From positions 179,769-243,768 of the forward strand of contig JAJDTM010000030.1 in assembly GCA_022827185.1 (NCBI GenBank): 64,000 nt of DNA. Direction: 5' to 3'. Source of the DNA: Candidatus Poribacteria bacterium (lineage in GTDB: Bacteria > Poribacteria > WGA-4E > WGA-3G). Positions 2,677 to 58,378 of the stretch are shown here, one piece after another. Within the stretch, counting starts at the first letter, position 1, and every line of letters starts with the position of its first letter. The position numbers were made by a program, and so were the translations under genes. The notes below the pieces were generated by a model that worked only from the letters and a program-made list of their open reading frames with translations, searched no databases and had not been told where the DNA came from.

Positions 2677-4083
2677 ATGCAGTATGATGATAAACCGAAG
2701 GACGAATGTGGTGTGTTCGGTGTCTTCGGTCATCCAAGAGCAGTAGAATTAACCTATTTAGGGTTGCGTGCCCTTCAACATCGAGGGCAAGAGAGCAGCG
2801 GCATTGTCGCATCAGATGGCGAGAGATTTACGTATCACCACGGCATGGGTCTGGTTCACTCTGTGTTTAGTGCTGAGGTTTTAGCGAAATTGAATGGGCA
2901 TATTGCTATTGGGCATAACCGGTACTCAACGGCGGGTGCGAGCACGCTTGAGAATGCTCAGCCTCTGGTTCGGAATTATAAACAGGGTCCCCTCGCGCTC
3001 GGTCACAACGGCAACCTTGTCAATGCTGTGCAAATTCGGAATCATTTGGAAAATGCCGGTTCAATTTTCAGTACAAGTTTAGACACAGAAGTCATTTTCC
3101 ACTTGATAGCACATTCGCGGAAGCAGGCTTTAGAGCATAGGATCGTTGATGCGCTGCGGAGTGTTGCGGGTGCGTACTCATTTGTATGCATGGATAAAAC
3201 CACGCTGATGGGTGCCCGCGATGCACATGGGTTTCGCCCCTTGTGGATCGGTAAGTTAGGGGACGCGTATGTATTCGCCTCTGAGACGTGTGCATTCGAT
3301 GTCGTTGAAGCAGAGCCGATCCGTGAAGTGGAACCCGGGGAATTGGTATTTACGCGTTCTGCGCAGCGTGGTTTGGAGTCGTTGCGTTTTCATAAGAGAC
3401 AGTCAGAGTTATCACAGTGTATCTTTGAGTATATCTATCTGGCGCGGCCGGATAGCATGATGTTCGGACACAGTGTGAATAACACACGCCGAGAGTTCGG
3501 TAGACAACTGGCTCGCGAACACCCCGTTAAAGCGGATGTTGTTATCCCGGTGCCTGATTCCGCGACGATTGCTGCACTCGGATACGCTGAGGAATCTGGT
3601 ATCCCATTTGATTTAGGGCTGTCTCGGAACACTTTCGTCGGTCGCTCTTTCATGAACCCCACACAGGATATCCGAGAACTCATGGTGAAGGTGAAGTTGA
3701 ACCCGGTGCGCGATGTGTTACGCGGCAAACGGGTTGTGCTCGTAGATGATTCGATTATGCGTGGGACAAATAGCAGGAAACTTATCAAAATCGTTCGGCA
3801 GGGCGGCGCGACAGCTGTACATCTTCGGATTGCATCGCCTCCGAATAAGTTTCCTTGTTTCTATGGTGTAGACACACCGACACGTGGTGAATTGATTGCC
3901 AGTTCACATACAATTGATGAAATACGTAAGTATATCCGTGCTGACAGCCTCGGTTATCTAAGCATTGACGGGTTACTGAAATCAGTGGAGGCACCTCAAG
4001 ATTTTTGCACCACCTGTTTTGACGGTGAATATCCGATTCCGCTTGTGGAAGAATCTTCGGAACAGCTGCCTTTGATTGTGTAG
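2677..4083 (+). CDS. purF: amidophosphoribosyltransferase
   Basis: N-terminal DECGVFGVFGH (Ntn Cys after a short propeptide), a glutamine amidotransferase type 2 domain, and a PRTase motif VVLVDDSIMRGTNS. A C-terminal Cys-rich tail suggests an Fe-S type. The ORF frame opens at 2626. Confidence 0.9.
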   Translation: MQYDDKPKDECGVFGVFGHPRAVELTYLGLRALQHRGQESSGIVASDGERFTYHHGMGLVHSVFSAEVLAKLNGHIAIGHNRYSTAGASTLENAQPLVRNYKQGPLALGHNGNLVNAVQIRNHLENAGSIFSTSLDTEVIFHLIAHSRKQALEHRIVDALRSVAGAYSFVCMDKTTLMGARDAHGFRPLWIGKLGDAYVFASETCAFDVVEAEPIREVEPGELVFTRSAQRGLESLRFHKRQSELSQCIFEYIYLARPDSMMFGHSVNNTRREFGRQLAREHPVKADVVIPVPDSATIAALGYAEESGIPFDLGLSRNTFVGRSFMNPTQDIRELMVKVKLNPVRDVLRGKRVVLVDDSIMRGTNSRKLIKIVRQGGATAVHLRIASPPNKFPCFYGVDTPTRGELIASSHTIDEIRKYIRADSLGYLSIDGLLKSVEAPQDFCTTCFDGEYPIPLVEESSEQLPLIV

Positions 4084-35501: not shown

Positions 35502-36449
35502 TTAGTGAACGCACTGATAACCGGTGGCTTCGAGTCTTTCTCGAATTTTGTCTACTTCGGCTGTTGACAGTTGACGGAGTGGTCGGCGCATGGTCATTGA
35601 CGGGAATCTTCCCATCAGCCAGCGTGCGCATTTCATCCGCTGATGGGCATCACTGCTCGGTTCACCGAAGTTGTAGACGATCCGTGCCAATGAATCCACT
35701 TGACTGCGCGCCTTACGTGCGCCAATAAGATCATCGTTGAGGGCGGCATGGACGACATCTACCATCAACTCTGGGACAAAGCCAGCAAATCCGATGAGTG
35801 CGCCATCGCTGCCTTCAAGGAGTGAAGCGAGTAGATACTCGTCATGGCAAGTTAAGATAGGGACATCCGGTGCTGCCGCTCTGAGTTGTTCGTAATCCCA
35901 TCGCCAGCGCGCCATGTCGCGGGTCCCCATTTTGATGCAGATAACTTGCGGGATCTTGACCATTTCCAACATCTCTTCAAGGCTATATCCTGCCTTCGTC
36001 CATGCGGGATATTGATGAACAATAATCGGTATGTCCGCGCCTTCGGCGACATCTTGGAAGTAACCGACTGCGGTTTCGGGTGTTCTGCCGAATCGCAACC
36101 AGTGATGTGCGGGCATTAATAGGATGGCATCCGCGCCGGCTTCCTTTGCGGCGAGTGCGTCGTCAATTGCCGGTAGGCTCCCTTCCGCGCTAACGCCTGA
36201 AACGACTTTAACGCGGTCGCCGACAGCTTCGGCGGTAATCCGCGTAACTTGCTGTCTTTCATGGAGACGAAGGGACATAATTTCGCCGGTGTGTCCATTA
36301 CAGACAACCCCTTTTATTCCAGGGACACCCGCGAGTTCTTGCATGTACTGACGCAATCCGGCTTCGTCAATTGATTCATCTTCGTGAAAGGGGCAGAGCG
36401 TCGCCGGGAATACACCCGCCCATGGATGATGCTGCCAATTCAGTTTCAT
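35502..36449 (-). CDS. dihydrodipicolinate synthase / N-acetylneuraminate lyase family aldolase
   Basis: GVFPATLCPF, VVCNGHTGE, KVVSGV and AGADAILLMP motifs. Confidence 0.75.
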   Translation of the reverse strand: MKLNWQHHPWAGVFPATLCPFHEDESIDEAGLRQYMQELAGVPGIKGVVCNGHTGEIMSLRLHERQQVTRITAEAVGDRVKVVSGVSAEGSLPAIDDALAAKEAGADAILLMPAHHWLRFGRTPETAVGYFQDVAEGADIPIIVHQYPAWTKAGYSLEEMLEMVKIPQVICIKMGTRDMARWRWDYEQLRAAAPDVPILTCHDEYLLASLLEGSDGALIGFAGFVPELMVDVVHAALNDDLIGARKARSQVDSLARIVYNFGEPSSDAHQRMKCARWLMGRFPSMTMRRPLRQLSTAEVDKIRERLEATGYQCVH

Positions 36450-36455
36450 ATTTTA

Positions 36456-36554
36456 TTGGCTATCGGCTATTGGCTATCAGCCGTCAGTAAAGAGAGGTTT
36501 AATTTAATCAATAATTTCTTACCGACAACTGATAACTGATAACTGACAACTATT
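36456..36554. promoter_or_regulatory. cis-element family 2 copy: TTGGCTATCGGCTATTGGCTATCAG … CAACTGATAACTGATAACTGACAACTATT (AGTTATC heptad array)
   Basis: The 21-mer aactgataactgataactgac is identical, in reverse complement, to 48786-48806. Confidence 0.5.
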
Positions 36555-36610
36555 CTCCTGACTGCTTTTACTCAAATTCCGCACGATTTTTTAATTTAAT
36601 TCTATTTTAA

Positions 36611-36640
36611 CTTGATTTTGCATGTAAAATCAAGTATTAT
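36611..36640 (+). promoter_or_regulatory. promoter TTGATT-17-TATTAT overlapped by a 24-bp near-perfect palindrome cttgattttgca|tgtaaaatcaag, upstream of ccmE
   Basis: Read directly. One mismatch in the 12-bp arms. Confidence 0.4.
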
Positions 36641-36741
36641 TTTAAGTAGAAGAATTCATCTTGTCGGTATGGATCGGCTTTATAATAGCAAGATTTGGCT
36701 TTCAAGTTGCGCCAAATAGTGCCTACGGGTTCGTATTAATG

Positions 36742-37200
36742 GAGGATGTGCCGGTGAAAAAACGGAGCAGACTAAAGATTGTGGCTGCGAGTGCCATTTT
36801 GCTGGGCGGTATGGCGTTTTTAGTGGTAGACATGACGAGAAGCACGAGTATGCGACATTTTACGCCAACTTTGCTTGCGGCAGCCGGAGATGAGGCACAC
36901 GATCAACGGGTCCAAGTTGATGGTCTCATCGCAGCGGGGAGTTCGCAATGGGATGCTGTTAATTTTAAACTCACCTTTGCTATCCGGGATCGCGAGACCG
37001 AGGCAACAGTTAATGTGATTTACGAAGATCGGCTTAAACCGGATAACTTTAAGGATGGCGGCAGTGTTTTCGTGGAAGGCAAATACGATGCGACACAGAA
37101 CCTTGTTGTTGCCACTAAACTCATGACGAAATGTGCCTCAAAATACGAAGGTGCAGACAGTGCCGTGCCTACAGATGAAACTTCATACACTTCGGAATAA
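36742..37200 (+). CDS. ccmE: cytochrome c maturation heme chaperone CcmE, Cys-xxx-Tyr variant
   Basis: Transmembrane anchor plus an OB domain aligning to E. coli CcmE. The heme-binding region LMTKCASKY replaces the canonical LAKHDENY (His to Cys). The ORF frame opens at 36661. Confidence 0.7.
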   Translation, partial: EDVPVKKRSRLKIVAASAILLGGMAFLVVDMTRSTSMRHFTPTLLAAAGDEAHDQRVQVDGLIAAGSSQWDAVNFKLTFAIRDRETEATVNVIYEDRLKPDNFKDGGSVFVEGKYDATQNLVVATKLMTKCASKYEGADSAVPTDETSYTSE

Positions 37201-38660
37201 GGAATACATAACGTAAGTTTGATAAAAGCATATTGTCGCGCGAATTTTCGAGTTTGCGCTCATAGCACACAAACTGGAAAGTTTGTGCTACGAGGGCCGC
37301 AAGGTGGTCCTTTGGAGAAAATACTCTTATTGAACGCACATAATTTATTATTAAACTGGCGTTATATAATACTTTAGCACTCCCCCGTCAAACCCCGATG
37401 CTTTAGCTTGGGGATGTAGACAGCTAAGAGCGATCAATGAGAAAAGCACGTAAATTCAAACTTCAGGATCAATCTAATACGATCCAACTCGGCAATATGC
37501 TTGACGATATGTGGGGTATCCACGTGTATATTATGTTGCTTGCCCGCAGGTATTATCGCATGTTTGGTAAAAATCTATCAGCATATCGTTTGAAAGCACA
37601 CGTTAGAAAACTCAAAAAGCGGACGAAAGCGCATTGGGCGGATTTGCCGAGTCAAGTTGTGCAAGACGTTGTATTGCGTTATGGCAAATCGCAAGGTGCT
37701 TTTCTTGATAATATCAAAGACCGTAAAACCGGTAAAACGACGCGCAAAGTGGGTAGACCGAAAATTCAACCGCGTCATAAATATAACTCCATGACGTTCA
37801 CACAAGCGGGGTATGAACTTGAAGACAATCGTATTAAAATCAACTGTATAGATACATGGTTCTCTTTCCATAAACACCGAGAAATCAAAGGAACTATTAA
37901 GACGATCACCATCAAGCGTGATAAATGCGGCGACTATTGGCTATGCTTTTCGTGCGAGGATGTTGACGATTCCGAACCCAAACCCAAGACGGGTAAGAGC
38001 GCAGGATTTGATTACGGAAACAAAACATTCCTCACCAGTAGCGAAAGCGATAAGATAGAATCACCGCAGTTTTTCAAACAATCACTAAAAACGTTGCGAA
38101 CCTTAAGCAAGGCATTAAGTCGGAAAGTCAAAGGTTCAGGTAATTGGTATCGTGCGTGTCGTGCTTTAGCAAGGCTACACAGAAAAGTCGCCCGACAAAG
38201 AGCAGATTGGCAATGGAAACTTGCCACCGAACTTTGCACGGAATACGACACCCTAATTTTTGAGACGCTGAACATTGACGGCATGAAAAGGCTTTGGGGT
38301 CGTAAAGTTTCTGACCATGCCTTCTACCAGTTTCTACAGATTTTAGAGCAGAAGTGTGCGAAGCACGGTAAGGCACTTGAAAAGATTGATCGCTGGACAC
38401 CTACAACGAAACCTTGCAGTGATTGTGGATACCATAATAAAGAACTTTCTCTTTCAGATAGAGAGTGGACGTGTCCCGAATGTGGTTCACACCACGACAG
38501 AGACATCAACGCTGCTATCAATATCAAACAGGCAGGCTTGGCTGCCTAAAGTGGAGTAGACGTAAGACGGTGGACTCTTTGAGAAAACCGCTGACTACGA
38601 GGAAGCACAAGCCCCAACCTTTAGGTTGTGGGTACCTATGACCAGTATGTTCAACGATAC
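37201..38660 (+). mobile_element. IS200/IS605-family element carrying only tnpB (IS1341-like); ends approximate
   Basis: Left-end subterminal hairpin cacaaact/agtttgtg at about 37265-37288. Right-end hairpin caacct-tt-aggttg at about 38618-38636. No tnpA. Confidence 0.6.
37437..38549 (+). CDS. tnpB: TnpB (OrfB) RNA-guided endonuclease-like transposon protein
   Basis: Split RuvC-like motifs and a C-terminal zinc finger CSDCGYHNKE…CPECGSHHDRDINAAINI. Confidence 0.85.
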   Translation: MRKARKFKLQDQSNTIQLGNMLDDMWGIHVYIMLLARRYYRMFGKNLSAYRLKAHVRKLKKRTKAHWADLPSQVVQDVVLRYGKSQGAFLDNIKDRKTGKTTRKVGRPKIQPRHKYNSMTFTQAGYELEDNRIKINCIDTWFSFHKHREIKGTIKTITIKRDKCGDYWLCFSCEDVDDSEPKPKTGKSAGFDYGNKTFLTSSESDKIESPQFFKQSLKTLRTLSKALSRKVKGSGNWYRACRALARLHRKVARQRADWQWKLATELCTEYDTLIFETLNIDGMKRLWGRKVSDHAFYQFLQILEQKCAKHGKALEKIDRWTPTTKPCSDCGYHNKELSLSDREWTCPECGSHHDRDINAAINIKQAGLAA

Positions 38661-38690
38661 CTTTTTAATTTTAGGGAGGCACAGCAGCGC

Positions 38691-40709
38691 ATGACTGCGG
38701 AAATCGGACAAGCCGCTATATACCTCTCTGTGCTTTCATGTTTATGGGCAATCGGTTTCCTCAGTTTCGGGCTATGGATACGAAATGCCCGTGCTATCCA
38801 GAGCGGCAGAAACGCCGTTGTTGCCACCTTCATCCTTATCAGTATTGCGACTGGGGCATTAATCTACGGTTTTGTGACCGATGATTTCTCAATGAAATAC
38901 GTAGTTGAGGTCTCAAGCGCAGCACAACCCCTACTTTATAAAATCACTGCAATCTGGGGTGCCATGTCTGGTTCGCTCTTGTTCTGGCTCTGGCTGCTTA
39001 CTGTTGGTGGTGCTATTGTTGTCTGGCAGAACTATCAACGTAACAAACAGACGCAAGATACCTTAGCAGACTACTCCCTGATTCCGATCGCTATTGTTCA
39101 GCTATTCTTCACCATCCTTGTCACAGGTTTAATAGACGGCATTTACAATCCACTCGCCCGGTTTCCGGACGGACAGGTCTTTGCCGACGGTCAAGGCATG
39201 AACACGCTTCTCCAGACCCCACTCATGGCGATCCATCCACCGACATTATATATCGGTTGGATTAGCTTGACGATACCGTTTGCGTTCGCAGTTGGCGCGC
39301 TGGCATCGGGTAGAATCGGCAGCGGCTGGATCCTCCGCTCACGCAGATGGATGCTCTTTTCATGGATTATACTGACCATCGGTATCACGCTCGGTGGCAA
39401 TTGGGCATATCAGGAACTCGGTTGGGGCGGTTATTGGGCATGGGATCCTGTTGAAAATGCCTCTTTTATGCCGTGGCTCCTCGGCACCGCGTATCTACAC
39501 TCTGTGATGATCCAAGAGAAGCGGAATATGCTCAAACTTTGGAATATTCTCCTGATTACCCTTGCCTTCCAATTTACACTCTTGGGGACTTTCATTACGC
39601 GTAGCGGAATTATCACATCGGTGCATGCTTTCGGCGGATCGGGTATTGGTGGGTATTTCCTTACTTTTATTTTAGCGTCAACAGCCGGGGTCATCGGACT
39701 CATCATCTATCGTTGGAACCGGCTTAAGAGTGCGAATCGTTTAGAGTCCCTTCTCTCCCGTGAAAGTGCCTTTCTTCTGAATAACTGGCTCCTTGTCGGG
39801 TTAACCCTAATTATCCTCTGGGGTACGTTGTGGCCGATTATCTCTGAGGCGATCAACGGTGAAAAATCTTCTGTTCCTGAAGCCTTTTTCAATAAAGTTG
39901 TGATTATTCCGGGGTTGCTGCTTCTATTCCTGACAGGTGCCGGTCCGATCATTTCATGGAAAAAAATTACTGCTAACAATTTTCGACGCATGTTTTTCTT
40001 GCCGCTTGTTATCGGTTTAATTGGCGGTGCTTTGACCTGGGGATTCCTTGCATTAATAGGATATACTTTTCCGCTGTATTCAGTGCTCTGTAGTTTTGCT
40101 GCTGTTTTTGTGCTCGCCGCAATCTTTGCTGAGTTTTATCGGGGTGCAAAACTCCGCGCGAAACGACAGGAGACCTCCTTCGTCAACGGCTTGAATCTCC
40201 TTATTCAGCGTAACAAGAGACGGTATGGCGGTTACATCATCCATATCGGCATTGTTATCCTCTATATAGGCATTATGGGATCGAAGGGCTATTTTCTGCT
40301 TGAATCTCAAAGTATGACACTCGGGGGATCCATGGAAGTAGGCAAGTATAAACTGACAATGATAGACTCATTTGAGAAAGAATACTCGAACTATCTCCGA
40401 AGCGGTGTTGTTTTCGATGTTGAAAAGAACGGGAAACATATAGGGACAATGGAGCCCGCGCTTCACGCCTACTACAAAGCCAAACCCGATGAACAACCTA
40501 CAAAGGAATCAGCCATCCAGCACTTGGGGGTGAACGACCTCTATATCGCCCTTGCCAGCATTCCACGAAATATCAAGACAGGCGGTATTGTGAACGTTCA
40601 GGTGTATTACAACCCTCTGATTGGCGTTGTCTGGATTGGTGTTGCTGTGATGGTGTTAGGTGGAATCGTTGCGATAGCCGAGAAATCTGAACGCAGTGGA
40701 GATTCATGA
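38691..40709 (+). CDS. ccmF: cytochrome c-type biogenesis protein CcmF (heme lyase)
   Basis: MTAEIGQAAIYLSVL start like CcmF. WGGYWAWDPVEN is the WWD-domain motif. More than 12 transmembrane helices. RBS gggagg at 38672. Confidence 0.85.
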   Translation: MTAEIGQAAIYLSVLSCLWAIGFLSFGLWIRNARAIQSGRNAVVATFILISIATGALIYGFVTDDFSMKYVVEVSSAAQPLLYKITAIWGAMSGSLLFWLWLLTVGGAIVVWQNYQRNKQTQDTLADYSLIPIAIVQLFFTILVTGLIDGIYNPLARFPDGQVFADGQGMNTLLQTPLMAIHPPTLYIGWISLTIPFAFAVGALASGRIGSGWILRSRRWMLFSWIILTIGITLGGNWAYQELGWGGYWAWDPVENASFMPWLLGTAYLHSVMIQEKRNMLKLWNILLITLAFQFTLLGTFITRSGIITSVHAFGGSGIGGYFLTFILASTAGVIGLIIYRWNRLKSANRLESLLSRESAFLLNNWLLVGLTLIILWGTLWPIISEAINGEKSSVPEAFFNKVVIIPGLLLLFLTGAGPIISWKKITANNFRRMFFLPLVIGLIGGALTWGFLALIGYTFPLYSVLCSFAAVFVLAAIFAEFYRGAKLRAKRQETSFVNGLNLLIQRNKRRYGGYIIHIGIVILYIGIMGSKGYFLLESQSMTLGGSMEVGKYKLTMIDSFEKEYSNYLRSGVVFDVEKNGKHIGTMEPALHAYYKAKPDEQPTKESAIQHLGVNDLYIALASIPRNIKTGGIVNVQVYYNPLIGVVWIGVAVMVLGGIVAIAEKSERSGDS

Positions 40710-56431: not shown

Positions 56432-58378
56432 TTGAAAAGTGAATTAACTTCAGAACCTTATAATTTCAGAAAACCCCCCGAACAAAATAGTCGAAACCTT
56501 AAGTTTGGCGCGTCATGGCGAGCAATCCTACTCGGCACTGTTCTTATCATCCCGAACATGTACTGGATTCTGGATTCCGCCGGGCAAGGGTATCCGACGA
56601 CTATTTCTCTCTATTTTAACGTCATTTTTTGCGTTTTTGCCATCACAGGTGTTAACCTCATCTTGGTCCGGGTAGCCCCTGGGATTGCTATGCAACAGGG
56701 TGAGTTGTTGACGGTTTACGTCATGCTGGCGATTGCGTCCTCATTGGCGGGTCATGATGTACTACGCGTCTTGATTCCGATGATTCCGTATGCGTTCTGG
56801 TACGCAACGCCAGAAAATGACTGGGCAGACCTGTTCCATCGGTATATCCCGGATTGGATGGCTGTCAAGGAGCGGCTTTTTTTAACGGAGTATTATCGCG
56901 GTGAGACAACCCTTTACCAATGGGAAACTGTCCAAGGCTGGTTCACGACAACGGTCGCTTGGGGTGGTTTCCTATGCGTGATGGTGTTCCTGATGGTGTG
57001 TATCAACAGTCTCGTCCGGAAACAGTGGACGGAGCATGAGAAGCTGAGTTATCCCATTATTCAGTTGCCGCTTGAATTAACGAGCGGTGGTCGCGCGAAC
57101 TTGTTGACAAATAAAATGATGTGGCTTGGGTTCGGGATTGCTGGTGCAATTGACATTCTCAATGGGCTTCACTATCTCTATCCGAGTGTGCCGAGTTTGG
57201 GTGGGAGGCTCTACGATTTACGTCCATTCTTTACACAGAAACCGTGGAGTGCAGTGGGTTGGACACCTATCGCTGTTTTTCCATTTGCAGTGGGTATCGC
57301 TTTCTTTATCCCGCTTGACTTGTCGTTTTCATGCTGGTTTTTCTATCTTTTTTGGAAGGTGGAGCGTGTCTTTGGAGATGCTCTGGGGGTGCGGGGCATG
57401 CCGAACTTCCCTTTCACGGATGAGCAGTCTTTCGGGGCATATCTCGGCTTATTTGTTATCGCGATTGTGGCGACACGAAAGCATCTCGCACAAGTTGGAC
57501 GTAAGTTGTTTAGAAACGACCCGCGTGTTGACGATTCGGACGAACCGATGTCCTATCGGGTGACGGTGTTAGGACTTATCGCAAGTCTTATCTTTATCGT
57601 CGGGTTCTGTAAAACAGCGGGCATGTCTATCTGGGTGATCCTCGTATTTTTTGGGATCTATTATGCCATCTCTACTGCGGTAACTCGAATGCGTGCGGAA
57701 CTCGGTTCGCCGGTGCACGACCTGCACTTTATTGGACCCGATGAGATGATGCCCCGTATCTTTGGAACGCGGCTGCTCGGTCCACACAACTTAACGATAA
57801 TGGCGTATCTCTTCTTTTTCAATCGTGCCTATCGCGGGCACCCGATGCCACATATCTTGGAGGGATTTAAATTAGCGGAACGGACGGGAATTTCCAATCG
57901 GCGGTTATTAATTGCGATGTGTATTGCGATTGTTATCGGTACGTTCGCTTCGTTCTGGGCATTCTATCATATCTCTTACATTGAAGGGGCGCGTGATTGG
58001 TTCGCGGGACGACCTTTCAATCGACTCCAGAGTTGGTTGACTTCGCCGAGAGCACCGGATGTGCCAGCGATTGTTGCGATGTGTATCGGGTTCCTGATTA
58101 CCGGGTTCCTGATGATAATGCGGATGCGACTTTTTTGGTGGCCCTTTCATCCTGCTGGGTTTGCCATCTCCAGCAGTTGGTCGATGAATGTGTTCTGGTT
58201 TTCGATCTTGGTGAGTTCGGTCATCAAATGGATTATTCTTCGGCACGGTGGTGTGAGTGCACACCGAAAACTGATTCCGTTCTTTCTCGGTCTAATCTTA
58301 GGCGAATTTATCGTCGGCAGCGTGTGGAGTATCATAGGGATTACGACGAACCAACCGATGTATCGATTCTTATTTTAA
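56432..58378 (+). CDS. large polytopic membrane protein (DUF6785-like)
   Basis: 648 aa with more than 12 predicted transmembrane helices. No catalytic motif recognised. Confidence 0.45.
   Translation: MKSELTSEPYNFRKPPEQNSRNLKFGASWRAILLGTVLIIPNMYWILDSAGQGYPTTISLYFNVIFCVFAITGVNLILVRVAPGIAMQQGELLTVYVMLAIASSLAGHDVLRVLIPMIPYAFWYATPENDWADLFHRYIPDWMAVKERLFLTEYYRGETTLYQWETVQGWFTTTVAWGGFLCVMVFLMVCINSLVRKQWTEHEKLSYPIIQLPLELTSGGRANLLTNKMMWLGFGIAGAIDILNGLHYLYPSVPSLGGRLYDLRPFFTQKPWSAVGWTPIAVFPFAVGIAFFIPLDLSFSCWFFYLFWKVERVFGDALGVRGMPNFPFTDEQSFGAYLGLFVIAIVATRKHLAQVGRKLFRNDPRVDDSDEPMSYRVTVLGLIASLIFIVGFCKTAGMSIWVILVFFGIYYAISTAVTRMRAELGSPVHDLHFIGPDEMMPRIFGTRLLGPHNLTIMAYLFFFNRAYRGHPMPHILEGFKLAERTGISNRRLLIAMCIAIVIGTFASFWAFYHISYIEGARDWFAGRPFNRLQSWLTSPRAPDVPAIVAMCIGFLITGFLMIMRMRLFWWPFHPAGFAISSSWSMNVFWFSILVSSVIKWIILRHGGVSAHRKLIPFFLGLILGEFIVGSVWSIIGITTNQPMYRFLF

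Follow-up and report, generated by a model that had tools for sequence, protein, structure and literature searches.

A tnpA-less IS200/IS605-family element with a predicted omega-RNA between ccmE and ccmF in Candidatus Poribacteria

Within the window, by which we mean the whole 64,000-nucleotide stretch of Candidatus Poribacteria DNA that was analysed, the cytochrome c maturation genes ccmE, ccmF and ccmH lie around a TnpB-encoding element, all on one strand. The original prediction of a tnpB gene without tnpA, oriented with the operon and inserted between ccmE and ccmF, agrees with the open reading frame, the flanking genes and the tnpA search, and the predicted gap of about 1.5 kb measures 1490 nt from the ccmE stop (37200) to the ccmF ATG (38691). 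The mechanical reading frame of ccmE starts from a TTG at 36661; the CcmE proteins of relatives are called at 148 aa, and 672 aa is the length of most CcmF homologues. The ribosome-binding site and start codon of ccmF are intact, as had been claimed, since the GGGAGG and ATG of the window match AGGAGG...ATG in relatives. The features of the interval are collected in Table 1.

Table 1. Features in and around the ccmE-ccmF interval, in window coordinates.
Feature	Position	Strand	Remarks
ccmE	36754..37200	+	Pfam CcmE 3e-19; 148 aa from GTG 36754, start as in relatives
MITE-like insert, 159 bp	37208..37366		separate from the element; terminal inverted repeats ATAACGTAAGTTTGATAA and TTATTAAACTGGCGTTAT
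Central hairpin of MITE-like insert	37264..37291		DNA fold -12.4 kcal/mol, z = -4.3
Target/transposon-adjacent motif TTTAG	37373..37377	+	core TTAG 37374-37377; native flank, outside element
IS200/IS605-family element, 1265 bp	37378..38642	+	left end, tnpA remnant, tnpB, predicted omega-RNA, right end
Left-end imperfect hairpin CCCCGATGCTTTAGCTTGGGG	37393..37413	+	conserved in 74 loci; resembles right-end hairpin
tnpA remnant	37429..37440	+	last three codons and stop, AGC GAT CAA TGA; TGA overlaps tnpB ATG
tnpB	37437..38549	+	370 aa, intact; RuvC D192, E277, D356; zinc finger C327/C330/C346/C349
Minimal omega-RNA scaffold (predicted)	38530..38642	+	covariation; 5' limit may lie further inside tnpB
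Predicted omega-RNA helix A	38530-38547	+	overlaps tnpB stop
Predicted omega-RNA helix B	38556-38560 with 38594-38598	+	covariation
Predicted omega-RNA helix C	38569-38571/38575-38577 with 38581-38583/38587-38589	+	covariation
Predicted omega-RNA helix D (right-end hairpin)	38612-38632	+	covariation
Right-end hairpin CCCCAACC TTTA GGTTGTGGG	38612..38632	+	compensatory variants among copies
Right terminal motif TGAC	38639..38642	+	last bases of element; invariant in 73 copies, following base varies freely
Predicted guide CAGTATGTTCAACGAT	38643..38658	+	first 16 nt of right flank, in ccmF 5' leader
ccmF ribosome-binding site GGGAGG	38674..38679	+	aligns with AGGAGG in relatives
ccmF	38691..40709	+	672 aa from ATG 38691; Pfam CcmF_C 5e-55, Cytochrom_C_asm 9e-34

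The limits of the element are defined by comparison with its other copies and with vacant sites. Among about 80 copies from Candidatus Poribacteria genomes, homology starts at approximately 37373-37378 and stops at 38642, with sharp edges at 37378 and 38642 and unrelated flanks in every copy. The whole interval 37201-38690, at first taken to be the element, is thus replaced by a shorter one, and the comparison with other tnpB copies that had been proposed for finding the ends and the motif yields both, the motif being TTAG (family TTAR). Six close relatives (CcmF 91-95% identical), sharing the synteny GFO_IDH_MocA-DHDPS-ccmE-ccmF-ccmH, have an empty ccmE-ccmF gap of 61-100 nt. In four of them (L081-L084) the junction reads TTTAG followed by CAGTATGTTCAACGA(T/C); TTTAG is joined directly to CAGTATG or TAATATG in these four and in L086, and L085 reads CCTTAG instead. 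Given these six empty gaps, the insertion was precise, 3' of TTAG, without target duplication and specific to this lineage, and the possibility that related genomes would carry the gene as a non-mobile syntenic fixture is answered by their vacant ccm operons. The empty sites fix the junction to within a 2-nt CA microhomology that leaves three possible cuts, of which the one at 38642 was chosen because the base after ...GAC varies in other copies. Across the family the motif counts are 31 for TTAA and 9 for TTAG, and position -5 is a T in 65%; judged from these flanks, the target motif of the family is TTAR.

Both ends are of the IS200/IS605 type, carrying subterminal imperfect hairpins that are alike, rather than terminal inverted repeats. 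A left-end hairpin had been placed at 37265-37288; a strong hairpin does exist there, but it lies outside the element, and the true left-end hairpin is the one at 37393-37413, for which single-sequence folding was uninformative (z = +0.15). At the other end, the hairpin earlier placed at about 38618-38636 is real, conserved and covarying, its stem occurring as AACC/GGTT, TACC/GGTA and ACGC/GCGT across copies, and such compensatory changes remove the concern that a conserved right-end structure might be missing. In 68 of 71 copies the last base of the target motif is complementary to the foot base of the left-end hairpin at 37393 (A:T in 36, G:C in 32, three exceptions). This is the family's mark of a left-end DNA guide that specifies the target motif, and suggests such a guide here, the covariation itself not saying which bases actually pair.

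Searching with tblastn gave 229 confirmed stretches, from which 80 loci were retrieved, and more than 20 copies occur in one genome. An exact-sequence look-up of the window TnpB returned no record, and no identical or near-identical copy was found. A 139-aa Y1 TnpA (Y1_Tnp, 7e-40), overlapping tnpB and lying between tnpB and the same left end, is encoded in 14 of the 80 loci, and L087 also carries a 139-aa Y1_Tnp in this place. The closest relative of the window copy (92% TnpB identity) still bears tnpA; DNA identity to the closest copy is 89% over tnpB and the right end. No tnpA was found by tblastn in the element or the 64-kb window, nor did blastn (word size 7) and tblastn detect a second copy or fragment of the element or of the neighbouring MITE-like repeat in the window. 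The tnpA remnant was recognized by alignment to the tnpA-bearing L002, L079 and L087, which places the deletion junction at approximately 37427/37428, the window copy being without the 491 nt of L087 (2502-2992) that hold the promoter and tnpA. These alignments show the window copy to have arisen by deletion from a tnpA+tnpB element of the IS605/IS608 type. Like members of the IS1341 group it has tnpB alone between its ends and so is non-autonomous, and the earlier name "IS1341-like" fits it structurally; unlike them, it derives from a tnpA+tnpB element and retains the ATGA overlap along with the last three codons of tnpA. The name therefore describes its present structure and not its lineage, since the ancestor carried tnpA and the closest relative still does. 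On the + strand of 37201-38690 no sigma-70-like promoter was found, and the promoter and terminator scan of this interval showed one weak terminator-like site (37507-37527). A strict internal-promoter pattern matched only 25 of 74 copies, so that promoter loss may be common and not special to the window copy.

The 370-aa reading frame has the modal TnpB length of the family and matches Pfam OrfB_IS605 (1e-23), the Cas12f1-like TNB domain (7e-24) and, over 340 residues, the ISDra2 TnpB structures 8BF8/8EXA (E = 7e-45). The split RuvC motifs and C-terminal zinc finger described from the first inspection are present, as GFD192YG, IFE277TL and HD356RD for the D-E-D triad and C327xxC and C346xxC for the zinc ligands, and the suspicion that catalytic residues might be missing is thereby removed. 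In the alignment the GxDxG, E and DRDxNAAxNI motifs are identical to those of ISDra2 TnpB, and, going by the literature, D192, E277 and D356 presumably correspond to its D191, E278 and D361. Comparison of the window TnpB with ten other copies gives dN/dS of 0.07-0.11 at pairwise dS of 0.66-1.0; by this measure tnpB is under purifying selection.

An omega-RNA scaffold had been expected at the 3' end of tnpB and the right end, at about 38450-38660, and five covarying helices now delimit a predicted scaffold inside that span. In these helices 96.6% of cells pair, against 30-43% in slid controls, with compensatory changes in 11 pairs and double changes in 114 cells (12 or fewer in controls), and none of 500 shuffles reaches the observed score. 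Third-codon-position entropy drops as low as 0.26 in the last 10 codons of tnpB. The single-sequence fold of the region is unexceptional (z = -1.3), so that the case for an omega-RNA rests on covariation; a search of 36000-40000 gave no Rfam match at E up to 10. Because covariation in the right-end hairpin could reflect DNA recognition by TnpA and not RNA, helices A-C constitute the RNA-specific evidence. The structure of the 3' end is consistent with an omega-RNA. Its predicted guide agrees with the expectation that the first bases downstream, in the ccmF leader, would serve: the position is set by the right-end boundary, and the length of 16 nt is assumed from ISDra2. The 16-mer is unique in the window, and following TTTAG in the empty sites it is matched at 16 of 16 positions in L084 and at 15 of 16 in L081-L083.

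Very probably, the stretch 37378-38642 is non-autonomous and belongs to the IS200/IS605 family, which is multi-copy in Candidatus Poribacteria genomes, with an origin, insertion and omega-RNA as follows, where omega-RNA processing, nuclease activity, expression and present-day mobility are steps that we infer. The ancestor carried co-directional tnpA and tnpB overlapping by ATGA, and a 491-bp internal deletion took the promoter of the element and all but the end of tnpA, leaving the left-end hairpin abutting the start of tnpB. On the top strand the element immediately adjoins the 3' side of a native TTAG, within a 61-nt spacer between ccmE and ccmF, and the target is not duplicated. By analogy with known systems, a Y1 TnpA acting in trans would bind both end hairpins, cut behind TTAG and behind the terminal TGAC, and carry the element over in single-stranded form. 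TnpB, with an omega-RNA made of the tnpB 3' end and the right end, would likewise take its guide, approximately 16 nt long, from the leader of ccmF (CAGTATGTTCAACGAT) and would cleave TTTAG+CAGTATGTTCAACGAT where the site is vacant, after which a sister chromosome with the element would restore it by recombination (homing or retention). Transcription of the element is most likely by read-through from ccmE, because no internal promoter is present, and ccmF would need transcription through the element.

Alternatively, the element could be a stranded relic, an immobile and functionally dead transposon that persists because excision never happens, with TnpB and the omega-RNA unused. We consider this unlikely. 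The loss of tnpA and the internal promoter, the lack of tnpA within 64 kb, and the want of a near-identical sister copy on record (dS being 0.66-1.0 to the ten copies tested) are all compatible with a relic, but the reading frame is full-length with all catalytic and zinc ligands, and the hairpins of the two ends, the closing TGAC and the predicted omega-RNA helices are intact. The pairwise dN/dS values also argue against it, as they include the window copy's own branch, and the insertion is missing from relatives with 95% identical CcmF and is therefore not ancient.

More doubtful is an extension of the read-through proposal to the function of the operon. Since the promoter is lost and the element points the same way as the ccm operon around it, TnpB and the omega-RNA may be made only from the ccmE-ccmF polycistronic transcript. 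Processing of the omega-RNA 3' end would then fall in the ccmF leader, approximately 15 nt upstream of the ribosome-binding site, and would sever or destabilise the ccmF message, coupling the machinery that maintains the element to cytochrome c maturation. If true, this would amount to a polar or regulatory effect on cytochrome c maturation.

It is very improbable that the host has domesticated this TnpB and fixed it as an RNA-guided regulator acting on ccmF or on the ccm operon, comparable to TnpB-like repressors that are nuclease-dead. A co-oriented, promoterless gene inside an operon, with a guide equal to the ccmF leader, might be read in this way, but the RuvC motifs and transposon ends are intact, the gene is missing from the ccm operons of all six closest relatives, and the closest TnpB relatives lie at unrelated loci. 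In addition, the guide match in the occupied locus is preceded by the right end (TGAC) and not by the target motif, so that binding of the complex at its own locus is not expected.

The 61-nt spacer has also received the separate MITE-like insert, which lies 7-11 nt upstream of the same TTAG as the element and is absent from all six empty sites; going by these sites, the spacer is occupied by two independent insertions. The terminal repeats of the insert are complementary at 15 of 18 positions (counted by hand), and its ends are approximate. L064 has a homologous copy immediately upstream of its IS, bordered on both sides by the 8-bp direct repeat TAAGTATA; around the window copy several registers for a target duplication were considered by eye, none of them convincing. 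The terminal-repeat motif is found in L009 (as an inverted pair), L015, L016, L018 and L038, in all of which except L016 the repeat occurs without the IS, and the central hairpin is kept in L064, L026 and L007. Proximity of the repeat to ends of this IS family (the window, L064, L016 and L026), perhaps more frequent than expected, may faintly point to a target preference common to both or to an interaction. This MITE-like repeat is the ATAACGTGAGTTTGATAA-ended repeat, of which only a handful of copies were seen. An outward promoter in its TATAAT-containing right end was rejected, there being no acceptable -35 or TGn.

The 7-mer acgtaag, which the original prediction saw at both junctions as a possible target or cleavage motif, occurs at 37211 and, instead of 38568, at 38560. 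The first copy belongs to the left terminal repeat of the MITE-like insert; the second falls in a predicted omega-RNA helix, 83 nt inward from the right end. The second copy being inside the element, the pairing is put down to chance; the real motif is TTAG. As a target or cleavage motif acgtaag is rejected, and ACGTAAGTT at 57499 is plain coding sequence. A single composite element of 37201-38690, with the 37265-37288 hairpin as its left end and acgtaag at its junctions, would make use of that strong hairpin and of the repeat directly upstream of the IS in L064, but is refuted, as more than 70 other copies begin at about 37373-37378 with unrelated upstream flanks, the segment 37208-37366 bears terminal inverted repeats of its own and is found apart from the IS in L009, L015, L018 and L038, and acgtaag is common (12 in the window versus 6.5 expected) with neither copy at an IS junction.

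The non-autonomous IS200/IS605 element can be compared with several known systems. With ISDra2 of Deinococcus radiodurans and IS608 of Helicobacter pylori it has in common an imperfect subterminal hairpin near each end, insertion on the 3' side of a short T-rich motif that is not duplicated, a guide RNA (here predicted) encoded by the end of tnpB and the right end, and full-length members that encode a Y1 TnpA. It differs from them in its end and scaffold sequences, in the lack of tnpA and promoter in the window copy, and in its target, TTAR (TTAG in the window), the motif being TTGAT for ISDra2 and TTAC for IS608. The ISGst elements of Geobacillus stearothermophilus are alike in having many tnpA-less copies and few autonomous ones with shared ends, a motif common to TnpA and TnpB, and empty sites in related strains that equal donor-joint targets, and differ in host phylum and sequences. 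The preprint of Meers et al. (PMC10055086) on the ISGst elements reports donor joints that are scarless, insertion on the 3' side of the target motif with nothing duplicated, a target motif shared by TnpA and TnpB, and a lack of tnpA in most tnpB elements.

A literature search for Poribacteria together with TnpB found no papers. Knowledge of the IS200/IS605 family itself is unchanged by the window copy. For annotation, the limits of the element are corrected and two insertions in one 61-nt spacer are told apart. The locus offers a clean natural case of occupied and empty sites, in which the predicted TnpB guide matches its own vacant site, and across approximately 70 independent insertions the target base tracks the foot base of the left-end hairpin. 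For an uncharacterised Poribacteria TnpB lineage, the analysis supplies a target motif and a predicted scaffold and guide, and thus a candidate compact RNA-guided nuclease.

Scanning one genome per species confirmed 229 relatives of the window TnpB, of which 80 loci (L001-L080) were kept. They show 81-90% protein identity to it, and one chromosome alone has more than 20 copies; 79 bear Candidatus or uncultured Poribacteria in their titles, and the remaining one is an “uncultured bacterium” MAG. Similarity to every copy ceases at window 38642, immediately after ...GGGTACCTATGAC, where unrelated flanks begin; on the left it starts at 37373-37378. The contigs carrying the nearest CcmF homologues (91-95% identity) come from six relatives (L081-L086), all of which keep the order GFO_IDH_MocA-DHDPS-ccmE-ccmF-ccmH with a ccmE-ccmF gap of 61-100 nt. 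Their empty-site spacer reads ...GGAATAC...TTTAG^CAGTATGTTCAACGA(T/C)ACC...AGGAGG...ATG (^, insertion point), placing the insertion at 37378-38642: 1265 bp directly 3' of TTTAG, without target duplication, out of the 1490 nt separating ccmE and ccmF. Owing to a 2-nt CA microhomology three cut positions are formally possible; the end is set at 38642 because the base following ...GAC differs freely from copy to copy. These sharp edges and empty sites supersede the extent of 37201-38690 in the original prediction, which had correctly placed the element between ccmE and ccmF in the operon's orientation. Downstream of TTAG and ahead of the ccmF ribosome-binding site, two of the spacers (L085 2415-2500 and L086 2404-2500) carry an extra palindromic segment of ~25-35 nt (...GACGCAGCTTGCAAGTCAAAACTTGC...); small insertions have therefore entered this spacer on at least three separate occasions in the clade. 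For ccmE, the mechanical ORF begins at TTG 36661 (179 aa, 36661-36753 being an extra N-terminal part); CcmE of relatives is usually called at 148 aa, equivalent to GTG 36754, which GGAGGA precedes, and this shorter start seems the more likely.

Coordinates of the element's features, its neighbours and the MITE-like repeat (window positions unless a locus is named)
Feature	Location	Strand	Remarks
ccmE	stop 37200	+	upstream neighbour of element
tnpB ORF	37437-38549	+	370 aa; Pfam OrfB_IS605 and Cas12f1-like TNB domain
Helix A	38530-38547		overlaps tnpB stop codon
Helix B	38556-38560 with 38594-38598		long-range
Helix C (two parts)	38569-38589		inner hairpin
Helix D	38612-38632		right-end hairpin
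ccmF	ATG 38691	+	672 aa, length shared with most homologues; downstream neighbour
ccmH	downstream of ccmF	+	neighbour gene
MITE-like repeat	37208-37366		window copy
MITE-like repeat	L064 3598-3765
MITE-like repeat	L009 40-204
MITE-like repeat	L015 1546-1588
MITE-like repeat	L016 5232-5249
MITE-like repeat	L018 2920-2937
MITE-like repeat	L038 6256-6273
MITE-like repeat	L026 3801-3860

Neither tnpA nor a second copy of the element was found within the window. Fourteen of the 80 loci, as well as L087, the locus of the closest TnpB (92% identity), encode a 139-aa Y1 IS200-like transposase (Pfam Y1_Tnp, 7e-40) between left end and tnpB, on the strand of tnpB and overlapping it by ATGA. Full-length copies have the left-end hairpin, then a near-consensus promoter (TTGACA, 17 nt, TGgTATAAT), then tnpA. 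The window copy aligns to L087 with 93% identity over 37369-37427 and 89.4% over 37429-38644; the 491 nt between these blocks in L087 are absent from it, and a tnpA remnant of three final codons plus stop is left at 37429-37440. Sequence comparison thus makes the window copy a deletion derivative of an IS605/IS608-type element: the earlier description as IS1341-like without tnpA holds for its tnpB-only structure, but not for its lineage, which had both genes before the 491-nt deletion. In the L013 copy, a 346-aa DDE (IS4-like) transposase gene (2857-3897) is nested between left end and tnpB as an IS-in-IS insertion.

The MITE-like repeat adjoining the element upstream (155-160 nt) is likewise missing from the empty sites and is a second, independent insertion. 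Two inverted repeats of 18 nt at its termini, ATAACGTAAGTTTGATAA and TTATTAAACTGGCGTTAT (15/18 complementary), enclose a central hairpin (37264-37291) that is strong (z = -4.3); the hairpin at 37265-37288, previously mistaken for the element's left end, belongs here. The motif acgtaag, which the original prediction placed at both junctions, lies at 37211 (not 37210) in the left terminal repeat of this insert; its other occurrence, at 38560, is within the element, 83 nt short of the right end. Against an expectation of 6.5, the window contains 12 examples of this 7-mer, and the pairing is attributed to chance. In L064, a related repeat that shares these termini and the hairpin adjoins the IS on its upstream side and is flanked by an 8-bp direct repeat. 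The terminal motif is also present in L009, where two inverted copies are separated by 165 nt, and in L015, L016, L018 and L038. The family's ends are ATAACGTGAGTTTGATAA, some copies carry the central hairpin CACAAACTGGRAAGTTTGTG, and promoter-like -10 boxes are often present a few bases upstream of the end motif. Four occurrences (window, L064, L016 and L026) are within ~200 nt of an IS-family end or inside a copy, a proximity that looks beyond chance given that such sequence is ~5% of the loci.

The element's own ends carry similar imperfect hairpins (37393-37413 and helix D), as the IS200/IS605 family predicts. All parsed copies have TTAA or TTAG 5' of the left end, and two sub-lineages appear to target these motifs respectively. 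In L001-L080, the last target base and the foot base of the left-end hairpin (window 37377 and 37393) are A:T in 36 copies and G:C in 32, with 3 exceptions (68/71 complementary). Because every insertion takes its motif from new flanking DNA, the correlation is evidence that the left end specifies the target, a mechanism known from the literature for IS608-type TnpA (Meers et al., PMC10055086, among others). The sequence (A/G)TACTTTAG is found just 5' of the target motif in the window (37369-37377), the L084 empty site and the unrelated L087 site (2443-2451); target preference may extend past TTAR, or this sharing may be chance.

TnpB residues 30-369 match the ISDra2 TnpB structures 8BF8/8EXA (E = 7e-45). 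Alignment to ISDra2 TnpB gives three RuvC motifs of the same kind (aGfDyG, ifEtLn and hDRDinAAiNI), positioning D192, E277 and D356, which we take to be the catalytic D-E-D corresponding to D191/E278/D361 of ISDra2. With CxxC pairs at 327-330 and 346-349, the expected RuvC motifs and C-terminal zinc finger are both in place. The gene is full length, and dN/dS of 0.07-0.11 (pairwise against ten copies) indicates strong purifying selection. A domesticated TnpB is very unlikely, the catalytic residues and ends being intact and the gene absent from the ccm operons of the six relatives.

The omega-RNA expected at the 3' end of tnpB and the right end is supported by five covarying helices spanning 38530-38632, and the scaffold may begin further inside tnpB. 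The helices were obtained with RNAalifold and completion by hand from an alignment of 73 distinct copies (final 260 nt); Rfam gave no match in 36000-40000. Pairing holds in 96.6% of cells, versus 30-43% with partners slid by 1-3 columns, both sides change in 11 pairs (114 cells, slid controls at most 12), and none of 500 shuffles reached the observed covariation score. Helix D, which verifies the predicted right-end hairpin, could have a role in DNA recognition by TnpA; helices A-C lack such a role and point to an RNA. Over the last ten tnpB codons, diversity at third codon positions drops to 0.26 from ~0.7 bits, which would fit a second constraint acting on this stretch. Stretches resembling the omega-RNA and right-end region, with 78-83% identity to window 38551-38634, also occur 1.5-3 kb from the main copy in L038 (6761-6831) and L044 (8059-8140, minus strand); they are candidates for orphan right ends or for derivatives lacking the gene.

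By the family rule that the guide is the sequence just past the right end, the predicted guide is CAGTATGTTCAACGAT (38643-38658), ending 15 nt before the ccmF ribosome-binding site. That the guide would comprise the first bases of the ccmF leader, as anticipated, follows from the right end at 38642. The 16-mer occurs once in the window, and it is the sequence after TTTAG at vacant sites (16/16 in L084, 15/16 in L081-L083). The TnpB-omega-RNA complex would thus recognise precisely the donor joint left by excision, as in the homing and retention known for TnpB (PMC10055086).

No plus-strand sigma-70-like promoter is predicted in 37201-38690, and the one terminator-like site there is weak; tnpB would depend on read-through from ccmE, and ccmF on transcription that continues through the element. 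Movement of this copy would need TnpA in trans. No near-identical copy that would point to recent activity of the lineage is on record. Judged from its sequence, the element shows those defining features of the IS200/IS605 family and of TnpB/omega-RNA systems that were tested, so that the central reading of the original prediction is correct and its boundaries, left-end hairpin and junction motif are wrong. Host (Poribacteria), target motif (TTAR) and sequence set it apart from characterised members, and the window copy, lodged in an operon, is a promoterless deletion form of unusual compactness; all of these are variations within a well-understood kind.
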